From NCBI GenBank assembly GCA_018824765.1, contig JAHJFW010000077.1:1-25585 (forward strand): DNA of 25,585 bases, in the 5' to 3' direction. Each line of letters starts with the position of its first letter. Position 1 is the first letter of the stretch. Positions 3,074-25,046 of the stretch are shown one piece after another. The notes under the pieces were generated by a model. It ran no database searches. It was not told the DNA's origin and was given only the letters and a program-made list of their open reading frames with translations. Made by a program: the position numbers and the translations under genes. The DNA comes from Patescibacteria group bacterium. Its GTDB lineage: Bacteria; Patescibacteriota; Patescibacteriia; 2-12-FULL-60-25.

Positions 3074-3111
3074 ATTATCAATTTTATCTCGATAGAGAAA
3101 AAATTGATAAT
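3074..3111. repeat. 38-bp ATTATCA...TGATAAT palindrome, copy 1
   Basis: ATTATCAATTTTATCTC-GATA-GAGAAAAAATTGATAAT; 16 of 17 positions pair. Confidence 0.85.
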
Positions 3112-3175
3112 TAACCTAAGTTTCAAGCCCTTGACACGCAATAAATTATATGGCAGCGGTATATGTAGGAGGACT

Positions 3176-3733
3176 ATGAAAAGAAAAACCCGAGAAAGTG
3201 CAAAAATCATCTCGTGCTCATTACTGAAAATCTTGGCAATGGGAACGTTAGTAACGATTGCCGGTCTGCTTTCCCAAGGAAAAACGGCCGACAAACTCGT
3301 GAAAGACCTTGGAAGATATTCTGCCTGGGAAATTAAACAACTACTGAGAAGATTAAAGGTCAGAAAACTCATCACATATGATGAAGAAGACGAGCACTCG
3401 CCCATTATGCTGACAGAACGGGGTTTTTCACGTTTAAGTAAGGATAATTTTAAAGTTATCAAAGGACGGAAATGGGATCATTTTTGGAGATTGATACTAT
3501 TCGATATTCCCGAATACCCGAAAAAGCGCCAGAGCTTCCAACGAATGTTATGTTCCCTAGGTTGTTTTCAAGTCCAAAAAAGTGTCTACGCCTATCCATT
3601 TGATTGCCAATCAGATCTAATTCGATTAGCCTCACAATACAAGGTCGGGGGTTACGTTACAGTCTTAACGATACCTACCCTCGGTCCACATGAAAAAAAC
3701 GCGCGGGATTTTTACTTTAAAAAATCGCGTTGA
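3176..3733 (+). CDS. Stand-alone PaaX-like protein: probable N-terminal winged HTH plus Cas2-like (ferredoxin-fold) domain
   Basis: KWDHFWRLILFDIPE...LCSLGCFQVQKSVYAYPFDC matches the PaaX-central/Cas2-like pattern common in CPR. The N-terminal L..L...KLI.Y....IMLTERG resembles a wHTH. Start placed at ATG 3176 after AGGAGG (3167-3172); 185 aa. Confidence 0.8.
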   Translation: MKRKTRESAKIISCSLLKILAMGTLVTIAGLLSQGKTADKLVKDLGRYSAWEIKQLLRRLKVRKLITYDEEDEHSPIMLTERGFSRLSKDNFKVIKGRKWDHFWRLILFDIPEYPKKRQSFQRMLCSLGCFQVQKSVYAYPFDCQSDLIRLASQYKVGGYVTVLTIPTLGPHEKNARDFYFKKSR

Positions 3734-3736
3734 GCA

Positions 3737-3774
3737 ATTATCAGAAAAAGCCCTATCGGGCTTTTTCTGATAAT
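3737..3774. repeat. 38-bp ATTATCA...TGATAAT palindrome, copy 2 (may also act as a terminator)
   Basis: ATTATCAGAAAAAGCCC-TATC-GGGCTTTTTCTGATAAT; perfect 17-bp arms, starting 3 nt after the stop codon. Confidence 0.9.
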
Positions 3775-3886: not shown

Positions 3887-5902
3887 CTATCGCTGAACAA
3901 TCACTTTCCTCTCCTTCACATCCTCGTGATACACCTCTAGTTTATCACCAACAATAATTTTCACCTTCCCCTTAAACGCCAAACCGCACTCTTGGCCGCT
4001 GTAGGCTTCTTTTACGTTCTGCTTGCCGGATTGGACGGATTCGATAACTCCCTCACCGACAGGCTCTTCCCCGCGCCAGACACGCACCTTTTCTCCAGCT
4101 ACAATTTTCCCATCTCTCACGGATCCGCCGATAACCATGCGGCCGTGTTCAGTCCGGAAAATGGCAGCCGTCATGAATTCTCCAAGCGGCGTAACAATAA
4201 CTTCCGGCGGAACCATGGCATTCAAACGCTCCACAACATCGTCAAACAAATCATAGATAACTTTCCACTCTTTCACTTCCACGCCTTTCTCGCGCGCAAG
4301 TATCGCCGCCTGCGGCGTAATCGCTACGTTAAATCCATACACAACAGCCGGCTGCGCATCCTCTGCGCGCAAGATGTCATTTTCCGTAACATTGCCCAAA
4401 CCTTTTTTAATAACTTCCACGCCGATCTCATCGTGCTGTATTTTTTCAAACATTCCCAGCAATGCTTCCAGCGAACCCAAAACGTCACATTTCAAAACCA
4501 CATTCAGCATCTTTTTCGCTTCGGTCTTATCTTCCTCAGCGACAGCAACTTTGGTTGCTGAAAGTTGTGAAGCTACCTGATACGATGATTTCACTTTTTT
4601 AACTTGCAGCGTCTTGGGATCTTTCGGGACTTCCAAAATATCTCCGACAGACGGTGCGGCCTTGAAACCCAAAATCTTCACAGGGGTCCCCGGCGGCGCG
4701 GCTTCGAGCATACCCCCGTTCCAATCACGCATTGCCCTGACGCGACCGTAAGCGGCGCCGGCAACACCAATATAATCGTTGCGCTTAAGAGTTCCGGTTT
4801 GCACGAGGACGGTCGCAACAGGCCCTTCGCCCTTGTCCACGTGAGCTTCGATAACTGTGCCGGCTGCCAAGCGTTCGGGATTAGCGACTATTTTATCGGC
4901 ATTTAAATCAGCCACCAACAAAATCATGTCTAAAAGATCATCAATTCCCAATCCGCTTTTGGCTGAAATTTTCACCAACGGAACTTTGCCGCCCCAATTT
5001 TCAACGGTTACGCCGTTTTCCGCCAACTGTGCGAGCACGCGGTCCGGATCCGCCTCCGGCTTGTCCATTTTATTCAGCGCCACCACGAACGGCAGTTTCG
5101 CCGCCTGGATAATGCTGATTGCTTCCTTTGTCTGCGGCTGGACGCCGTCATCCGCTGCCACCACCAAAACCGCAATATCAGCCACGCGAGCGCCACGCGA
5201 GCGCATGACTGTAAATGCTTCGTGTCCGGGGGTATCGATAAAAGTAATCCTTCTCCCCTTCTTTTCCACCATGTAAGCACCGATATGCTGCGTAATTCCA
5301 CCAGCTTCTCCGCCCATGACATTGGTCGAACGAATAGCATCCAGAGTTTTGGTTTTTCCATGGTCAACGTGACCCATAACCACAACCACCGGGGGACGCG
5401 CAATGTTGTCTTCCGATTTCTCACTGTCCATAATCTCACGCACCCGATCGCCCGCCTGCATCACTTCCGCCAAATCGTCGCCCTTCGCTTCTTCCGGCAG
5501 AGCTTGAAAACCCAACTCCTCGGCAATGATGGAAGCTGTTTCAAAATCAAGACGCTCGTTTTGTGTGGCTAAAATGCCGCCTTTCATCAACTGCTGGATC
5601 ACCTTGGTAACCGGCATATTCAACTTACCGGCAAAATCCCTGACAATTATCATTGGCTGTAAATGTATCTCTTTCAATTTCTGCGTAGACCCCTCGCCGA
5701 TCCCCGGTTTGGCTTCAACAATCAAAGCGTCGCGCAGCTTTTTGCGGCGTTCCATCTCTATCCATTTCCGCGCGATCTGTTCGCCGGTTCTGTCATCAAT
5801 TTTAATGGCACGCCTGCCGATATCAAAACCAAACTCCGGCAATCTTTCCAAAAGCTCACTTGGGGTAACACGCAATCGGCGCGCAAGATCTGATACGTTC
5901 AT
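3887..5902 (-). CDS. infB: Translation initiation factor IF-2
   Basis: GHVDHGKT, GGITQHIGAY, DTPGHEAFTVMRSRGA, NKMD GTPase motifs. Start placed at MNVSDLARRL (5902), which is supported by the promoter position; 671 aa. Confidence 0.98.
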   Translation of the reverse strand: MNVSDLARRLRVTPSELLERLPEFGFDIGRRAIKIDDRTGEQIARKWIEMERRKKLRDALIVEAKPGIGEGSTQKLKEIHLQPMIIVRDFAGKLNMPVTKVIQQLMKGGILATQNERLDFETASIIAEELGFQALPEEAKGDDLAEVMQAGDRVREIMDSEKSEDNIARPPVVVVMGHVDHGKTKTLDAIRSTNVMGGEAGGITQHIGAYMVEKKGRRITFIDTPGHEAFTVMRSRGARVADIAVLVVAADDGVQPQTKEAISIIQAAKLPFVVALNKMDKPEADPDRVLAQLAENGVTVENWGGKVPLVKISAKSGLGIDDLLDMILLVADLNADKIVANPERLAAGTVIEAHVDKGEGPVATVLVQTGTLKRNDYIGVAGAAYGRVRAMRDWNGGMLEAAPPGTPVKILGFKAAPSVGDILEVPKDPKTLQVKKVKSSYQVASQLSATKVAVAEEDKTEAKKMLNVVLKCDVLGSLEALLGMFEKIQHDEIGVEVIKKGLGNVTENDILRAEDAQPAVVYGFNVAITPQAAILAREKGVEVKEWKVIYDLFDDVVERLNAMVPPEVIVTPLGEFMTAAIFRTEHGRMVIGGSVRDGKIVAGEKVRVWRGEEPVGEGVIESVQSGKQNVKEAYSGQECGLAFKGKVKIIVGDKLEVYHEDVKERKVIVQR

Positions 5903-5909
5903 GCGTCGC

Positions 5910-5938
5910 ATCCTACGGGAAAACCGCAATTTGGTCAA
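5910..5938 (-). promoter_or_regulatory. Sigma70 promoter placing the infB TSS at or next to the ATG
   Basis: TTGACC (5938-5933), 17 nt, TAGGAT (5915-5910), 7 nt, ATG (5902). Confidence 0.7.
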
Positions 5939-6056
5939 CCTTCTTTTCCATGTAATTCGCACTTCGCATCCGGTGCAAAATGAACTCCGGCGATAATCCG
6001 TTTACCATCCCCCTGAAAGCCTTCGCAAGGTTGTCAGAGTGTGAGAGGATGTCCAT

Positions 6057-13070: not shown

Positions 13071-13102
13071 GGACAAGATTTCCATCGTGCCAGACAAATG
13101 CC

Positions 13103-13140
13103 ATTATCAAAAATTTCCCGATCGGGAAATTTTTGATAAT
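13103..13140. repeat. 38-bp ATTATCA...TGATAAT palindrome, copy 3, abutting the tRNA-Arg 3' end
   Basis: ATTATCAAAAATTTCCC-GATC-GGGAAATTTTTGATAAT; extends to a perfect 42-bp palindrome at 13101-13142. Confidence 0.9.
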
Positions 13141-13214
13141 GGTGCACCCGCCAAGAATCGAACTTGGATCTCGGGCTTCGGAGGCCCGCATTCTATCCGT
13201 TGAAATACGGGTGC
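13140..13214 (-). tRNA. tRNA-Arg(CCG) with encoded CCA
   Basis: GCACCCGTATTTCAACGGATAGAATGCGGGCCTCCGAAGCCCGAGATCCAAGTTCGATTCTTGGCGGGTGCACCA; full cloverleaf, anticodon CCG. Confidence 0.97.
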
Positions 13215-13487: not shown

Positions 13488-13563
13488 GCGTCGGTAGCTC
13501 AATTGGCAGAGCAGGGGCCTCTTAAGCCCAAGGTTCTGGGTTCGATTCCCAGCCGACGCACCA
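13488..13563 (+). tRNA. tRNA-Lys(CTT) with encoded CCA
   Basis: GCGTCGGTAGCTCAATTGGCAGAGCAGGGGCCTCTTAAGCCCAAGGTTCTGGGTTCGATTCCCAGCCGACGCACCA; 76 nt, anticodon CTT. Confidence 0.97.
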
Positions 13564-13594
13564 AAAAAACAATGACAAACGTCGTTGTTTTTTT
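13563..13594 (+). terminator. Terminator after tRNA-Lys
   Basis: AAAAAAACAATGAC-AAAC-GTCGTTGTTTTTTT. Confidence 0.7.
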
Positions 13595-18327: not shown

Positions 18328-21273
18328 CTAAATCCGGCGCAGCCCCAGCTTTACCTCAATATCGCCCAATTTTATCTCTGACGTATACGTGAAATCAACA
18401 GCTGACGTCGAGACAATCTCAAACTTTTCAGCCCGTATCTCCCGCATAATCTGCTCTTTTGCTTGTTTTAATAATTCCAAAATCTCCTTATCTTTGACAA
18501 CCGCTACAGCCTCAATGCGGTCATCCGGCACCAACTCCGCCTGCTTGCGCAGATTCATAAATTGCCGCGACAACTCGCGCAACATACCTTTCTTCTTAAG
18601 TTCCGGGGTCAACTTTGTATCGAGCTCTATTATCCACTGTTCCGGTTCCGCTATATCATTCTGGCCGCCCTGTAGTAGAACTGATTCCACATTCAATTCG
18701 TCGCGTATCAATGCGATCAAATCCTGCCTGTTTTTCAAACGTTCAGCCGCAGAATTATCGCGCATCACTATCGTAAGCGAAGCAAGCGCCTGCCTTACCG
18801 GAATCTTGGCGGTTGCGCGCGCCTCCAGCCCGCGGCTTGCAACCTCGCGCGCCCACTCCATATCTTCCAATAGCTGTACGTCGAGTAGCCGCTCATCAAG
18901 CTTAGGCCAGCGCTCCAAGTGCACTGACATTTTCGAACCTTCCAAATCCTGATACAGCCGCTCGGCGAAAAACGGTGTGAATGGCGCCATCACCGTGCTC
19001 AAATCCAACAGGATTTCCCGCAATGTCCGCAAAGCGTCCTGCTTGTCATATTCATCATCGCCTTTCATCCTGTCGCGCGAACGCCTAAGCCACCAAGTCG
19101 AAAGATCGTCCACAAAGGGGCGGATGGCGCGCGCCGCTTCAACCAAATCATAGCCATCCATGGACTCGGTTACATCTTTATTCAGCTTCATGAACCTTGC
19201 AAAAATCCAGCGGTCCAAAATATGCGCTGAACGAGGTTTTACCAACGCGTTTTTATCGGTGCCGGCATACAGCAAATAAAACGCGCGCACATTCCATAGT
19301 ATTTGCAATAAGAGCCGCTGGAGAAGCTCGCAATCCTTATCAACAAAATTCAGATTCTCCGCCCTGATAACCGGCGAAGACAACAAGTAGTAGCGCAATG
19401 CATCAGCTCCTACATTAGTAATCAGCTCCCACGGATCAGTGTAGTTCTTTAATTTTTTTGACAACTTTTTCCCATCCTCGGCCAAAATCATACCGGTTAC
19501 AATTACGTGTTTGGCGGAGGCCTTGTTAAACAGCGCCGTAGCAAGGACATGCATGCTGTAAAACCAGCCGCGCGTCTGATCCTGCGCTTCGGCAATGAAG
19601 TTCGCCGGAAAATTATCATCAAACCATTCGGTGTTTTCAAAAGGATAATGCGCTGACGCATAGGGCATACTGCCTGATTCAAACCAGCAATCAAACACCT
19701 CTTTGATGCGCGCCATGCGTCCGCCGCAAGCGCAGGTAAATTCAATCTTGTCTATCTCGGGCCGATGCAGATCGGGTTTGGATGGTAATTTTTCAACCGC
19801 CGCTTTTTTCATCTCCGCGATCGAACTGATAATTTTGCGCTCATGACAGGATTCGCACTCCCAAACCGGCAATGGCGCGCCCCAAAAACGCGTGCGCGAA
19901 ATGCACCAGTCCGGCGCGCTCTGCAATCCCTTGCCGAAACGACCTTCCTTCAAATGTTCCGGATGCCAGTTAATCTTCTTCGCCGCCTCCAGCAGTTTGG
20001 GTTTCAATTTCGTGATATTCACAAACCAAGCCGATTGCGCCTTATAAAGCAACAATGTATTGCAACGCCAGCATACCGGAACGCTGTGAATTATCTTGTC
20101 TTCATCAAATAACAATCCGCGCGCCTTTAAATCGTCGATTATCTTTTGGTCTGATTCCTTAACTGGCAATCCCGCGAACTTCCCCATCTCCGGCCGTTGA
20201 CAGCCTTCGCCGTCAGTCGTCATCAATACTGACAAATCGTATTTTTTAGACGCGTTGAAATCATCCTCGCCAAAAGCCGGCGCAGTATGCACCAAGCCGG
20301 TACCCTCCTCGGCGCTGACATAGTCCGTAGCAATCACGCAATGCCCCTTTTTATCCAACGGCAAAAATGAATAAAGCGGCTCATATTCCCAGCCAACCAT
20401 GCGCGAGCCTTTGATGCGTTCCAAGATTTCAAAAGACATTTCACCTTTCAAAGGAAAAAACCTTTTCAAGACATCGTCTTTCCTATCCTTTGCAAAAATC
20501 ACTTCTTCGCCGGTTTCTTTCATCCTCACTTTGCAATACTCAAGATCCGGATTAACCGCAATGGCGGTATTTGCAAGCAATGTCCATGGTGTTGTCGTCC
20601 ACGCCAAAAGATACGTATTCTCCATCCCCTTAACCTTAAACTTAACGGTGATTGCCGGATCTTCGCGATCCTCATATGAATCTCCCATCGCGATTTCAAA
20701 ATTTGACAGCGGCGTTGCGCAACGCGGGCAATACAGAGAAACGCGAAGGTCCTTATAAACATACCCTTTGCGGTGCAGCTCCGAAAATATCCACCACACA
20801 GACTCGATGTAATCGTTGTCCATGGTCTTGTATGAATGTTCAAAATCCACCCAGCGGCCAAGGCGCTTGATATACCGGTCCCATTCCTGCTCATAGGTGC
20901 TGACAGATGCGCGGCACGCCTGATTGAATTTATCGATGCCGTACGCTTCGATGTCGCGTTTGGAAGACAGGCCCAGTTTCTTTTCGATCAAATTCTCGAT
21001 CGGCAACCCATGGCAATCCCACCCCCAGCGCCGCGGCACGCGATATCCTTGCATAGTCCAATAACGCGGCACCACATCTTTAATCGTGGATTGCAGAAGA
21101 TGCCCGTAATGCGGCAAGCCCGTGGCAAACGGCGGACCGTCATAAAATACGAAAACTTTGTTCTCCGGCCGCTCTTCAATAGACCGCTCGAAAATCCGCT
21201 TTTTCTCCCAAAAAGCGGAAACCTCTTCTTCCATTTTTGGAAAATCCGGACGTGATGATTTTGTGTCGCTCAT
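18328..21273 (-). CDS. ileS: Isoleucine--tRNA ligase, type 2 (IleRS2)
   Basis: FYDGPPFATGLPHYGH, GWDCHGLPIE, WTTTPWTL, GTGLVHTAP editing domain, DWCISRTRFWG, and a KMSKS variant KLSKK. Confidence 0.98.
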   Translation of the reverse strand: MSDTKSSRPDFPKMEEEVSAFWEKKRIFERSIEERPENKVFVFYDGPPFATGLPHYGHLLQSTIKDVVPRYWTMQGYRVPRRWGWDCHGLPIENLIEKKLGLSSKRDIEAYGIDKFNQACRASVSTYEQEWDRYIKRLGRWVDFEHSYKTMDNDYIESVWWIFSELHRKGYVYKDLRVSLYCPRCATPLSNFEIAMGDSYEDREDPAITVKFKVKGMENTYLLAWTTTPWTLLANTAIAVNPDLEYCKVRMKETGEEVIFAKDRKDDVLKRFFPLKGEMSFEILERIKGSRMVGWEYEPLYSFLPLDKKGHCVIATDYVSAEEGTGLVHTAPAFGEDDFNASKKYDLSVLMTTDGEGCQRPEMGKFAGLPVKESDQKIIDDLKARGLLFDEDKIIHSVPVCWRCNTLLLYKAQSAWFVNITKLKPKLLEAAKKINWHPEHLKEGRFGKGLQSAPDWCISRTRFWGAPLPVWECESCHERKIISSIAEMKKAAVEKLPSKPDLHRPEIDKIEFTCACGGRMARIKEVFDCWFESGSMPYASAHYPFENTEWFDDNFPANFIAEAQDQTRGWFYSMHVLATALFNKASAKHVIVTGMILAEDGKKLSKKLKNYTDPWELITNVGADALRYYLLSSPVIRAENLNFVDKDCELLQRLLLQILWNVRAFYLLYAGTDKNALVKPRSAHILDRWIFARFMKLNKDVTESMDGYDLVEAARAIRPFVDDLSTWWLRRSRDRMKGDDEYDKQDALRTLREILLDLSTVMAPFTPFFAERLYQDLEGSKMSVHLERWPKLDERLLDVQLLEDMEWAREVASRGLEARATAKIPVRQALASLTIVMRDNSAAERLKNRQDLIALIRDELNVESVLLQGGQNDIAEPEQWIIELDTKLTPELKKKGMLRELSRQFMNLRKQAELVPDDRIEAVAVVKDKEILELLKQAKEQIMREIRAEKFEIVSTSAVDFTYTSEIKLGDIEVKLGLRRI

Positions 21274-24034: not shown

Positions 24035-24820
24035 ATGTTCATCCGGCTACTTGCATTTCTAGCTTCATTATCAATGTTCTTAATGCCCAATGCAGGCCAT
24101 GCGGCGGCTGCCGGCAATTTTTCTCCCGGCGACCTGATAAGGGGCAATGCCGTAAACACGGTTTATTATTTCGCGCCGGACGGCAAGCGTTATGTTTTCC
24201 CGAATGAAAAAACTTATTTTACTTGGTATTCGGATTTTTCCGGAGTCAAAACCATTACCGACGGCCAACTCGGCGCCATTCCTCTCGGAAAAAACATCAC
24301 ATACCGCCCGGGCTATAAAATGGTAAAAATCACTACTGACCCCAAGGTCTATGCGGTTGAGCAGGGCGGGATTTTACGCTGGGTCACCACGCAGGAAATC
24401 GCCGAAACACTGTATGGCTTGAGCTGGAAAAACCAGATAGACGACGTGCCTGATGCTTTTTTCACAAATTACACAATCGGCACGCCAATCACTTCGTCAG
24501 CCGCGTACGATCCGCAAGACACCATGACACTCACTCCCAATATCGCAATTGACAAACAGTTCGACGAGACACAAGCCACGATTACCATAAGCAGTGTGTC
24601 CAACGGCTTTGTCCCGCCGTCTATCACTATCCAAAAAGGCGAAATGATCATTTGGACAAACCGCGATATCGACACCCATACCGTAACAGGATCGGATTTC
24701 AGTTCAGGCACTCTTCAGCCAAACCAATCCTACAGCCGCGAATTTACATCCACCGGCTCATACGATTACAACTGCTCAATACAGCCCTCGATGAGAGGCA
24801 CGATCAATGTCGTTGACTAA
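24035..24820 (+). CDS. Secreted protein: same N-terminal domain plus C-terminal cupredoxin-like domain
   Basis: Signal peptide ending in AGHA; paralogous N-domain; FVPPSITIQKGEMIIWTNRD...HTVT...FTSTGSYDYNCSIQPSMRGTINV. Confidence 0.87.
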   Translation: MFIRLLAFLASLSMFLMPNAGHAAAAGNFSPGDLIRGNAVNTVYYFAPDGKRYVFPNEKTYFTWYSDFSGVKTITDGQLGAIPLGKNITYRPGYKMVKITTDPKVYAVEQGGILRWVTTQEIAETLYGLSWKNQIDDVPDAFFTNYTIGTPITSSAAYDPQDTMTLTPNIAIDKQFDETQATITISSVSNGFVPPSITIQKGEMIIWTNRDIDTHTVTGSDFSSGTLQPNQSYSREFTSTGSYDYNCSIQPSMRGTINVVD

Positions 24821-24867
24821 ACCTCCATCCGCAAAACAAAAAAATCCGTCATTGCGAGAAATTCCAA

Positions 24868-24905
24868 ATTATCAAAAAAAGCCCGATCGGGCTTTTTTTG
24901 ATAAT
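24868..24905. repeat. 38-bp ATTATCA...TGATAAT palindrome, copy 4 (may also act as a terminator)
   Basis: ATTATCAAAAAAAGCCC-GATC-GGGCTTTTTTTGATAAT; perfect 42-bp palindrome at 24866-24907. Confidence 0.9.
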
Positions 24906-25046
24906 TTTAACTACACCGAACCCCATGCGATGGACAAAATCTGAATTATATGACGTGCTATATTCCATGCATTTTTTTTCCTGCTCTTTTCTGCTATTCT
25001 GATATTCGATATTCCATCTTCAATATTTTATTTTCTTTTTCCAACT

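Follow-up and report, generated by a model that had tools for sequence, protein, structure and literature searches.

The DUS of Neisseria and the USS of Haemophilus, which occur about once per kb, form inverted pairs that double as terminators. Integron attC sites are imperfect hairpins of about 57-141 bp with extrahelical bases, and they lie in cassette arrays next to intI. REP/REPIN elements and their RAYT genes together constitute REPtrons (Bertels and Rainey 2011, PMC3116915). The E. coli protein PaaX binds TGATTC-N27-GAATCA, an operator of 39 bp in total (PMC9493321). The palindromes described here share features with several of these systems, and a literature search returned no published description of them. 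They belong to a member of the Patescibacteria. These ultra-small bacteria have minimal regulatory equipment. They also appear to be without Rho, and how their transcripts end and how the 3' ends of their tRNAs mature is little understood.

Fixed geometry and compensatory change

The window (the whole stretch of 25,585 nt that was analysed) is one contig of a 903-kb assembly, designated G000, which consists of 130 contigs, is 87% complete with 4% contamination and has a GC content of 48%. Relatives of G000 all have genomes of ~1 Mb. Sequences similar to the window come from Patescibacteria MAGs, and the sequencing runs that contain it are groundwater and biofilm metagenomes. An initial annotation of the window had described four dispersed palindromes, and these are present at positions 3074-3111, 3737-3774, 13103-13140 and 24868-24905, each exactly 38 bp long. 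All four carry the ends ATTATCA/TGATAAT, around centres of GATA, TATC, GATC and GATC, respectively. The second and fourth copies are identical at 37 of 40 positions, the differences being a paired G-C to A-T swap and a loop change, and the replacement of AAG/CTT by TTT/AAA in the third copy, also noted in that annotation, is borne out. The end pattern occurs five times in the window, compared with 0.10 matches expected by chance. The fifth match (19612-19649) has one mismatch and a non-palindromic interior and lies within the IleRS gene; it was set aside as a chance occurrence.

A scan of the genome for ATTATCA-N24-TGATAAT, which the annotation had proposed, returned 15 exact sites. These ends are always 24 nt apart; all the other spacings between 8 and 44 gave zero matches in the 903-kb genome. 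When compensated changes in the ends are allowed, there are 19 full copies, ten of them identical, plus one truncated half copy at C25:544. The identical copies (masters) share a unit of ~42-44 bp, mostly with AA/TT flanks (AAATTATCA...TGATAATTT). An unbiased search for ATT...AAT-bounded, near-perfect palindromes found 19 at 38 bp and three or fewer at each other length, unrelated 28-bp families excepted. Two properties deduced from the window do not extend to the genome. The 7-bp ends, thought to be invariant, also occur as the co-varying pairs ATTATCC/GGATAAT, ATTACCA/TGGTAAT and ATTATCG/CGATAAT, and the density of about one copy per 6 kb is correct for this window but falls to ~1 per 45 kb genome-wide.

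A JGI contig from the same population contains one more master copy (L143:10815), past the end of contig C60; thus, the true copy number exceeds the assembly count. A metagenome scan with the master found six contigs, all from one sample and 99-100% identical to this genome. Since these contigs represent the same population, they provide no comparison of filled with empty sites. In four public runs (one of them RNA), searched with positions 5586-25585 in contig form only, contigs break inside the palindromes, and there are no skip joints at 13103 or 24868. When genome contigs were scanned for ATTATCA-N10-GATC-N10-TGATAAT, a pattern that itself fixes the ends and the centre, the palindromic matches were almost all in Patescibacteria MAGs.

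Other repeats are present in G000 as well. A second family of perfect palindromes, CTATTCTCTAATTCGCGCGAATTAGAGAATAG, has six copies of 28-32 bp (C13:3097, C121:3382, C67:2208, C130:912, C11:3347 and C28:2464), and there are smaller palindrome families, ATTCGCACATTCG..CGAATGTGCGAAT and TCCGACGTTCAAC... A role of the 7-bp ends as a DNA uptake sequence was considered and rejected: the genome contains 129 copies of ATTATCA and 123 of TGATAAT, compared with ~67 expected from composition (~1.9-fold), and no link to uptake is evident.

To score compensatory change, 33 copies from three species (G000, G002 and G003) were aligned on the 17-4-17 structure. The covariation that had been reported for a few window copies proved to be general, with 96.9% of cells paired and double-sided changes (82 cells) at 14 of the 17 stem pairs. 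None of 500 shuffles reached the observed values, and when the partners were shifted by 1-3 columns, 44-52% of cells remained paired. Only four cells of this alignment are G-U. Positions A1, T2, C17, A37 and T38 are invariant, and T3, C6, the GATC centre and G22 nearly so. In G000 the centre, which was not fixed by the search, is palindromic (GATC, CATG or TATA) in 14 of the 19 copies; the rest are the one-step derivatives GATA or TATC. An RNA loop has no need of a palindromic centre, and RNA helices normally contain G-U pairs; thus, the symmetry appears to be kept at the level of DNA, or for both directions of transcription. It had been argued that a dsDNA operator would need no paired interior. 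This argument is weak, since the palindromic CGATCG centre and the near absence of G-U point to two-fold DNA symmetry. A HIP1-like or restriction-site account of CGATCG was rejected, since genome-wide the hexamer ranks neither with the most over-represented 6-bp palindromes nor with the most under-represented.

Gene and tRNA 3' ends

Placement of the 19 copies was based on crude ORF calls and on tRNAs called by ARAGORN. By these calls, 17 of them lie just past the 3' end of a gene or a tRNA, with distances of a few to ~110 nt after stop codons. Fourteen occupy convergent spacers (that at C60:8582 was placed as convergent by orthology), three tandem and two divergent ones, compared with a convergent share of 19% among all spacers of 40 bp or longer.

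The window copies illustrate these contexts. The master copy at 24868-24905 (ATTATCA-A6-GCCC-GATC-GGGC-T6-TGATAAT), identical to nine others in the genome, has a palindrome that reaches 24866-24907. It lies 47 nt past the stop of a plus-strand cupredoxin-like gene (24035-24820), whose 3' end it would serve and which is syntenic with G001-G003, and 141 nt ahead of a DUF4349 gene. The copy at 3737-3774, which has terminator polarity (A5-GCCC-TATC-GGGC-T5), is found 3 nt past the stop of a gene termed here mini-PaaX, between this 3' end and that of the convergent infB (IF-2; 3887-5962, minus strand). The copy at 13103-13140 is fused to tRNA-Arg(CCG), which occupies 13140-13214 on the minus strand (ARAGORN and the Rfam tRNA family; tRNAs were the sole matches of the Rfam search). 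Its last base is the complement of A76 of the tRNA, and the palindrome reaches 13101-13142, so that the encoded CCA is paired with a distal TGG.

Six copies in the genome begin exactly at the terminal A (A76) of an encoded CCA; five of these are at tRNA-Leu, tRNA-Arg (twice), tRNA-Val and tRNA-Asp, and the sixth is at a tRNA-like 3' fragment (C13:2079). Hairpins are also common behind other tRNA genes. Approximately 27 of the 42 have a long hairpin, composed of an A-run, GC stem, loop, T-run and outer pairs, at -4 to +9 nt from CCA, and in these generic trailer hairpins the arms range from 8 to 20 and the loops from 2 to 6. They start at or inside CCA, the case in the window being 13563-13594 after tRNA-Lys (13488-13563), and in several trailers a distal TGG or TGGTG is paired with NCCA. 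The tRNA-like fragment, at C13:2117-2145 (L001), repeats the acceptor end of the neighbouring tRNA-Asp (...CGTCGGGACACCCGCCA) and is followed by the family palindrome; neither ARAGORN nor Rfam called it.

The master and 13 other copies in G000 consist of A5-7, a GC stem, a 4-nt loop and T5-7 on both strands, and the RNA of the master is predicted to fold at -24 to -27 kcal/mol from either strand. A search for the Rho RNA-binding domain (PF07497) in six genomes of the taxonomic family (G000, G001-G004 and G009, two of them 100% complete) did not find it. RNase III is present in G000 (C89:1209-1604). From the anatomy of the copies, their position and their interchangeability with ordinary terminators, we infer that most of them work as bidirectional Rho-independent (intrinsic) terminators or 3'-end hairpins. 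The initial annotation had held that they are not ordinary terminators, a claim that is contradicted by the 17 of 19 copies at 3' ends, by the A-run, GC stem and T-run of most of them, and by their standing in for terminators of sister species. It had also named the mark by which ordinary terminators would be known, namely coincidence with transcript 3' ends together with free variation in length and end sequence; the copies do coincide with the 3' ends of genes and tRNAs, but length and ends do not vary freely.

Copies at 3074 and C57:1151 have the T-run on the left and were not classed as terminators. The former (3074-3111) is located in the divergent promoter region upstream of the mini-PaaX gene, with its T-run on the left and its A-run on the right. 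It contains one A-A mismatch, and its end is separated by 64 nt from the ATG and by ~20 nt from a TTGACA that is conserved in three species. Judged by this inverted A/T polarity, an upstream copy of the 3074 type is not a terminator and should be unable to terminate in either direction. TGATAAT was also considered as a -10 promoter element and rejected, as the ends differ among species and there is no matching -35.

The mini-PaaX gene and the sister species

Copies 3074 and 3737 bracket the mini-PaaX gene (3176-3736, plus strand), which encodes a protein of 185 aa with a winged helix and a Cas2-like domain. The protein matches Pfam PaaX_M, the Cas2-like middle domain of PaaX, at 5.9e-14. E. 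coli PaaX (8a39) is the top Foldseek match to its AlphaFold model (pLDDT 78); the N-terminal domain of the model resembles the winged helices of MarR/LmrR and the C-terminal domain resembles Cas2. An Asp (D110) closes the first Cas2-like strand, within the motif FDIPE, and does not vary among 28 homologues. A sequence search of the PDB gave a designed repeat protein as the sole match, which was dismissed as irrelevant.

Homologues of mini-PaaX are found in 98 of the 401 sampled genomes of the phylum, often in multiple copies. Of 33 homologous loci, 26 have a long palindrome (12 or more paired positions per arm) no farther than 400 bp from the gene, and 12 of them have one on both sides. The two members of such a pair are 82-100% identical in 10 of the 12, yet the palindromes differ between genomes. 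Other lineages with this cassette contain only 2-6 cognate palindromes; thus, dispersal does not appear to be a general property of the protein. Bracketing by the 38-bp palindromes occurs in three species (G000, G002 and G003), and orthologous copies are present both up- and downstream of the gene in G002 and G003. The upstream copies of all three have non-terminator polarity, stand 59-64 nt before the ATG, and keep the length, the ends and the centre. Within the taxonomic family, the true 38-bp scaffold was found only in G000, G002 and G003, which are the genomes with a 76%-identical orthologue of mini-PaaX. Scaffold and orthologue are both absent from G001, which belongs to the same genus, and 37 other sampled genomes of the taxonomic family yielded single non-palindromic chance matches and no true scaffold palindrome.

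Sequence, modelled fold and analogy with PaaX make the mini-PaaX protein a likely candidate for the reader of the palindromes. The fixed 17-4-17 geometry, the conserved base and top, and the massive compensatory change argue for a function beyond termination alone. Together with the candidate cognate protein, these properties make the original description, a recognition site defined by structure or symmetry plus end sequence and REP-like in its logic, a fair one. The leader of the gene (3112-3175, compared with L103 and L104) contains CTTGACA, TGGCAGC and GTATAT(A/G)TAGGAGGA before the ATG, all conserved in the three species. TTGACA and TATAT are 23 nt apart, more than a standard sigma-70 promoter allows.

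G002 contains six members of the palindrome family and G003 eight. These members have ATTATCT, ATTATCC, ATTATCA or ATTGCAT as ends, and GTACCGATCGGTAC and CTCTCGATCGAGAG are among the interiors. All three species, whose coding DNA is only ~70% identical, retain the 38-bp length, the ATT/AAT ends and the CGATCG centre. Ordinary terminators occupy the G001 and G002 spacers orthologous to that of the 24868 copy, and the same is true of G001, G002 and G003 at the C18:1434 site, where filled and generic spacers were aligned but, at ~70% coding identity, are too diverged to define insertion borders. By comparison of orthologous spacers, the sites at 24868, C18:1434 and C36:9482 are new gains of the G000 lineage. 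The trailer of tRNA-Leu(UAG) holds a family member in G002 and G003 and a generic hairpin in G000.

Some sites are shared. The master at G000 C60:8582 is orthologous to G003 C29:4382, and the master at L143:10815 to both G002 C28:3408 and G003 C17:1870. The 13103 site corresponds to G003 C19:10084, beside a HisRS-type gene and a tRNA, where the member has three compensated changes. The interiors at orthologous sites are species-specific; thus, old sites seem to have been overwritten by each genome's own variant. As read from the sequences, this pattern of gain and replacement indicates concerted evolution plus spread of the family.

Several further features were observed. Contig C25 (1-4700), which matches parts of C18 and C44 at 82-92% identity, is probably from a co-binned related strain. 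Its half master copy is interrupted by a break in synteny 12 nt from its end, where the palindrome may be a hot spot of rearrangement or the contig may be an assembly chimera. At 24845-24858 of the window there is a remnant (GTCATTGCGAGAAA) of a GTCATTGCGAGGAG...GACGTGGCAATC repeat that is present two to three times in the orthologous spacers of G002 and G003 (L111, L112), and a further repeat, GTCATTCCCGCG..GGGAATCC, occurs in other spacers of these two genomes.

Possible roles and known counterparts

The best explanation, to which we give about an even chance of being correct, is that these genus-specific perfect palindromes have two layers, being terminators and at the same time a recognition scaffold for mini-PaaX, and that they evolve in concert. 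The interior (A-run, GC stem, 4-nt loop, T-run) would bring about termination for protein genes and tRNAs in both directions, with the polarity inverted in the promoter-side copy. The scaffold, formed by the ATT base, exactly 17 pairs and the C-GATC-G top, would be the cognate site of a dimeric mini-PaaX, whose two winged helices may read the ends and whose Cas2-like dimer may span the ~24-bp middle, as PaaX does on its box. In the G000 lineage the master variant would have been copied to new 3' ends, replacing ordinary terminators and overwriting older members. Gene conversion between hairpins, hairpin-templated repair or template switching, and a protein-assisted step are candidate routes for this copying. 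Several considerations weaken this two-layer explanation. Gene 3' ends are an unusual place for operators, the master has a GC stem of only 4 bp, short by the standard of canonical terminators, and perfect symmetry of the arms can arise without selection through quasipalindrome template-switch correction. In addition, G002 has a single orthologue, but its palindromes end in ATTATCC, ATTATCT, ATTATCA and ATTGCAT; thus, it is doubtful that one protein reads positions 4-7 in a sequence-specific way.

A simpler account would make the palindromes terminators only, with the hairpin duplicated by recombination or gene conversion, the arms kept perfect by quasipalindrome correction, and the bracketing of mini-PaaX a coincidence. 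We regard this as rather unlikely. It does fit the copies at 3' ends that replace generic terminators and the similarly long arms of generic tRNA trailers in G000, and the near absence of G-U intermediates is what mutational symmetrising would leave. However, variable generic terminators differ from a family in which 38 bp, ATT/AAT and CGATCG are fixed in three species, and termination explains neither the scaffold of promoter-side copies, kept despite their polarity, nor the centre, whose palindromic form would be of no use to an RNA loop. In addition, throughout the phylum, homologues of the gene have palindrome pairs of their own on either side. The opposite extreme is a purely transcription-factor regulon, in which the sites would be mini-PaaX operators for the neighbouring genes and the likeness to terminators incidental. 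The geometry is indeed of the PaaX-box type, the upstream copy precedes the conserved TTGACA, and in two Saccharibacteria MAGs the ATTATCA-ended palindromes are mostly in divergent promoter regions. Only two of the 19 copies in G000 are divergent, though, compared with 14 between convergent 3' ends; six are fused to tRNA or tRNA-like 3' ends, and the polarity of A-run and T-run tracks context, so that we consider a regulon highly improbable.

The family may also be mobile. If the winged-helix + Cas2-fold protein had the role of a RAYT, it would recognize the hairpin or cruciform and either nick it or promote its copying. Such a REP-like mobile element would have the layout of a REPtron (a gene flanked by its own repeats, with dispersed copies at 3' ends), and ten identical copies, a truncated half copy, lineage-specific gains with older members overwritten, and the invariant D110 on the first Cas2-like strand all agree with it. 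Against it, the partner protein is without an HUH/Y1 domain, the flanks have neither target-site duplications nor a common target motif, the four public runs, in contig form only, contain no presence/absence joints, several sites are old and orthologous between species, and other lineages with the cassette show no dispersal; moreover, a nuclease role of PaaX-type Cas2-like domains is only putative. We judge this mobile-element account to be quite improbable. Also unlikely is a second kind of repeat-plus-partner system, unrelated to REP/RAYT, in which a hairpin or cruciform of fixed length is both recognized by the winged-helix + Cas2-fold protein and copied under its drive, and the host has domesticated the copies as terminators, including the CCA hairpins.

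Under the two-layer explanation, one 38-bp design, fused to tRNA CCA with base-exact precision and homogenised in each species, would provide about twenty terminators and would be tied to a widespread, uncharacterised family of winged-helix + Cas2-fold proteins. If the protein reads the sites, an orphan gene cassette found throughout the phylum gains a concrete genomic function, and a 185-aa protein with a 38-bp DNA makes a simple experimental pair. If it also spreads them, a new mechanism of repeat propagation would be involved. What the present analysis contributes is the occupancy of terminator slots, CCA fusion as a general rule in the genome, overwriting across species, the rule of polarity, and the contrast with true REP/RAYT systems.

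Among known systems, Rho-independent terminators share with the family the A-run, GC stem, 4-nt loop and T-run as well as the sites at 3' ends, and the two are interchangeable at orthologous spacers. The 38-bp family differs in having ten identical copies, a fixed length and conserved ends and centre, in a stem that runs through and beyond the U-tract, and in the inverted polarity of some members. In DUS and USS, too, a motif recognized by a protein is arranged in inverted pairs with terminator function. The suggested likeness to attC fails on the hairpin itself, since the palindromes pair perfectly, have a fixed 38 bp and occur as single dispersed copies. A MITE was rejected as well, given flanks without direct repeats or a common target and a unit of 38-44 bp compared with the typical 100-400 bp.

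The resemblance to REP/RAYT lies in short extragenic palindromes mainly at 3' ends, a partner gene between two copies, and homogenisation within a genome. However, the partner here has a winged helix and a Cas2 fold, whereas that of REPs is an HUH/Y1 transposase, and the palindromes are single and near-perfect with ~20 copies, whereas REPs are imperfect, usually form inverted doublets and number tens to hundreds. G000 itself contains two Y1_Tnp/RAYT genes (PF01797; C116:11733-12065 and C94:15908-16237). Each of their loci, C116:11565-12333 (L140) and C94:15687-16453 (L141), is flanked by its own short palindromic repeat, of the GTACGTACCWGGTAC type and the GGTGCCAGGCACC type, respectively, and members of both repeat families are scattered over other contigs as well. 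They appear to be true REP/RAYT systems, here in a Patescibacteria genome of ~1 Mb. Since the RAYT genes of this genome are flanked by other repeats, the ATTATCA family is not a REP in the strict sense.

With the PaaX box the family shares two short inverted half-sites ~2.5 helical turns apart (39 bp in E. coli, 38 bp here), and its invariant spacing, 7-N24-7 or 6-N26-6, agrees with the ~26-27 bp between the inverted 6-7-bp half-sites of a PaaX-type operator. The candidate reader likewise has the PaaX winged helix and Cas2-like core, and one copy is upstream of the protein's own promoter region. The differences are the symmetric interior, the lack of the C-terminal ligand domain of PaaX in mini-PaaX, the location of most sites at 3' ends, and the orientation of the half-sites, which are everted relative to TGATTC...GAATCA. 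We describe the family as a REP-like repeat with a probable terminator role and a putative partner of the PaaX type.
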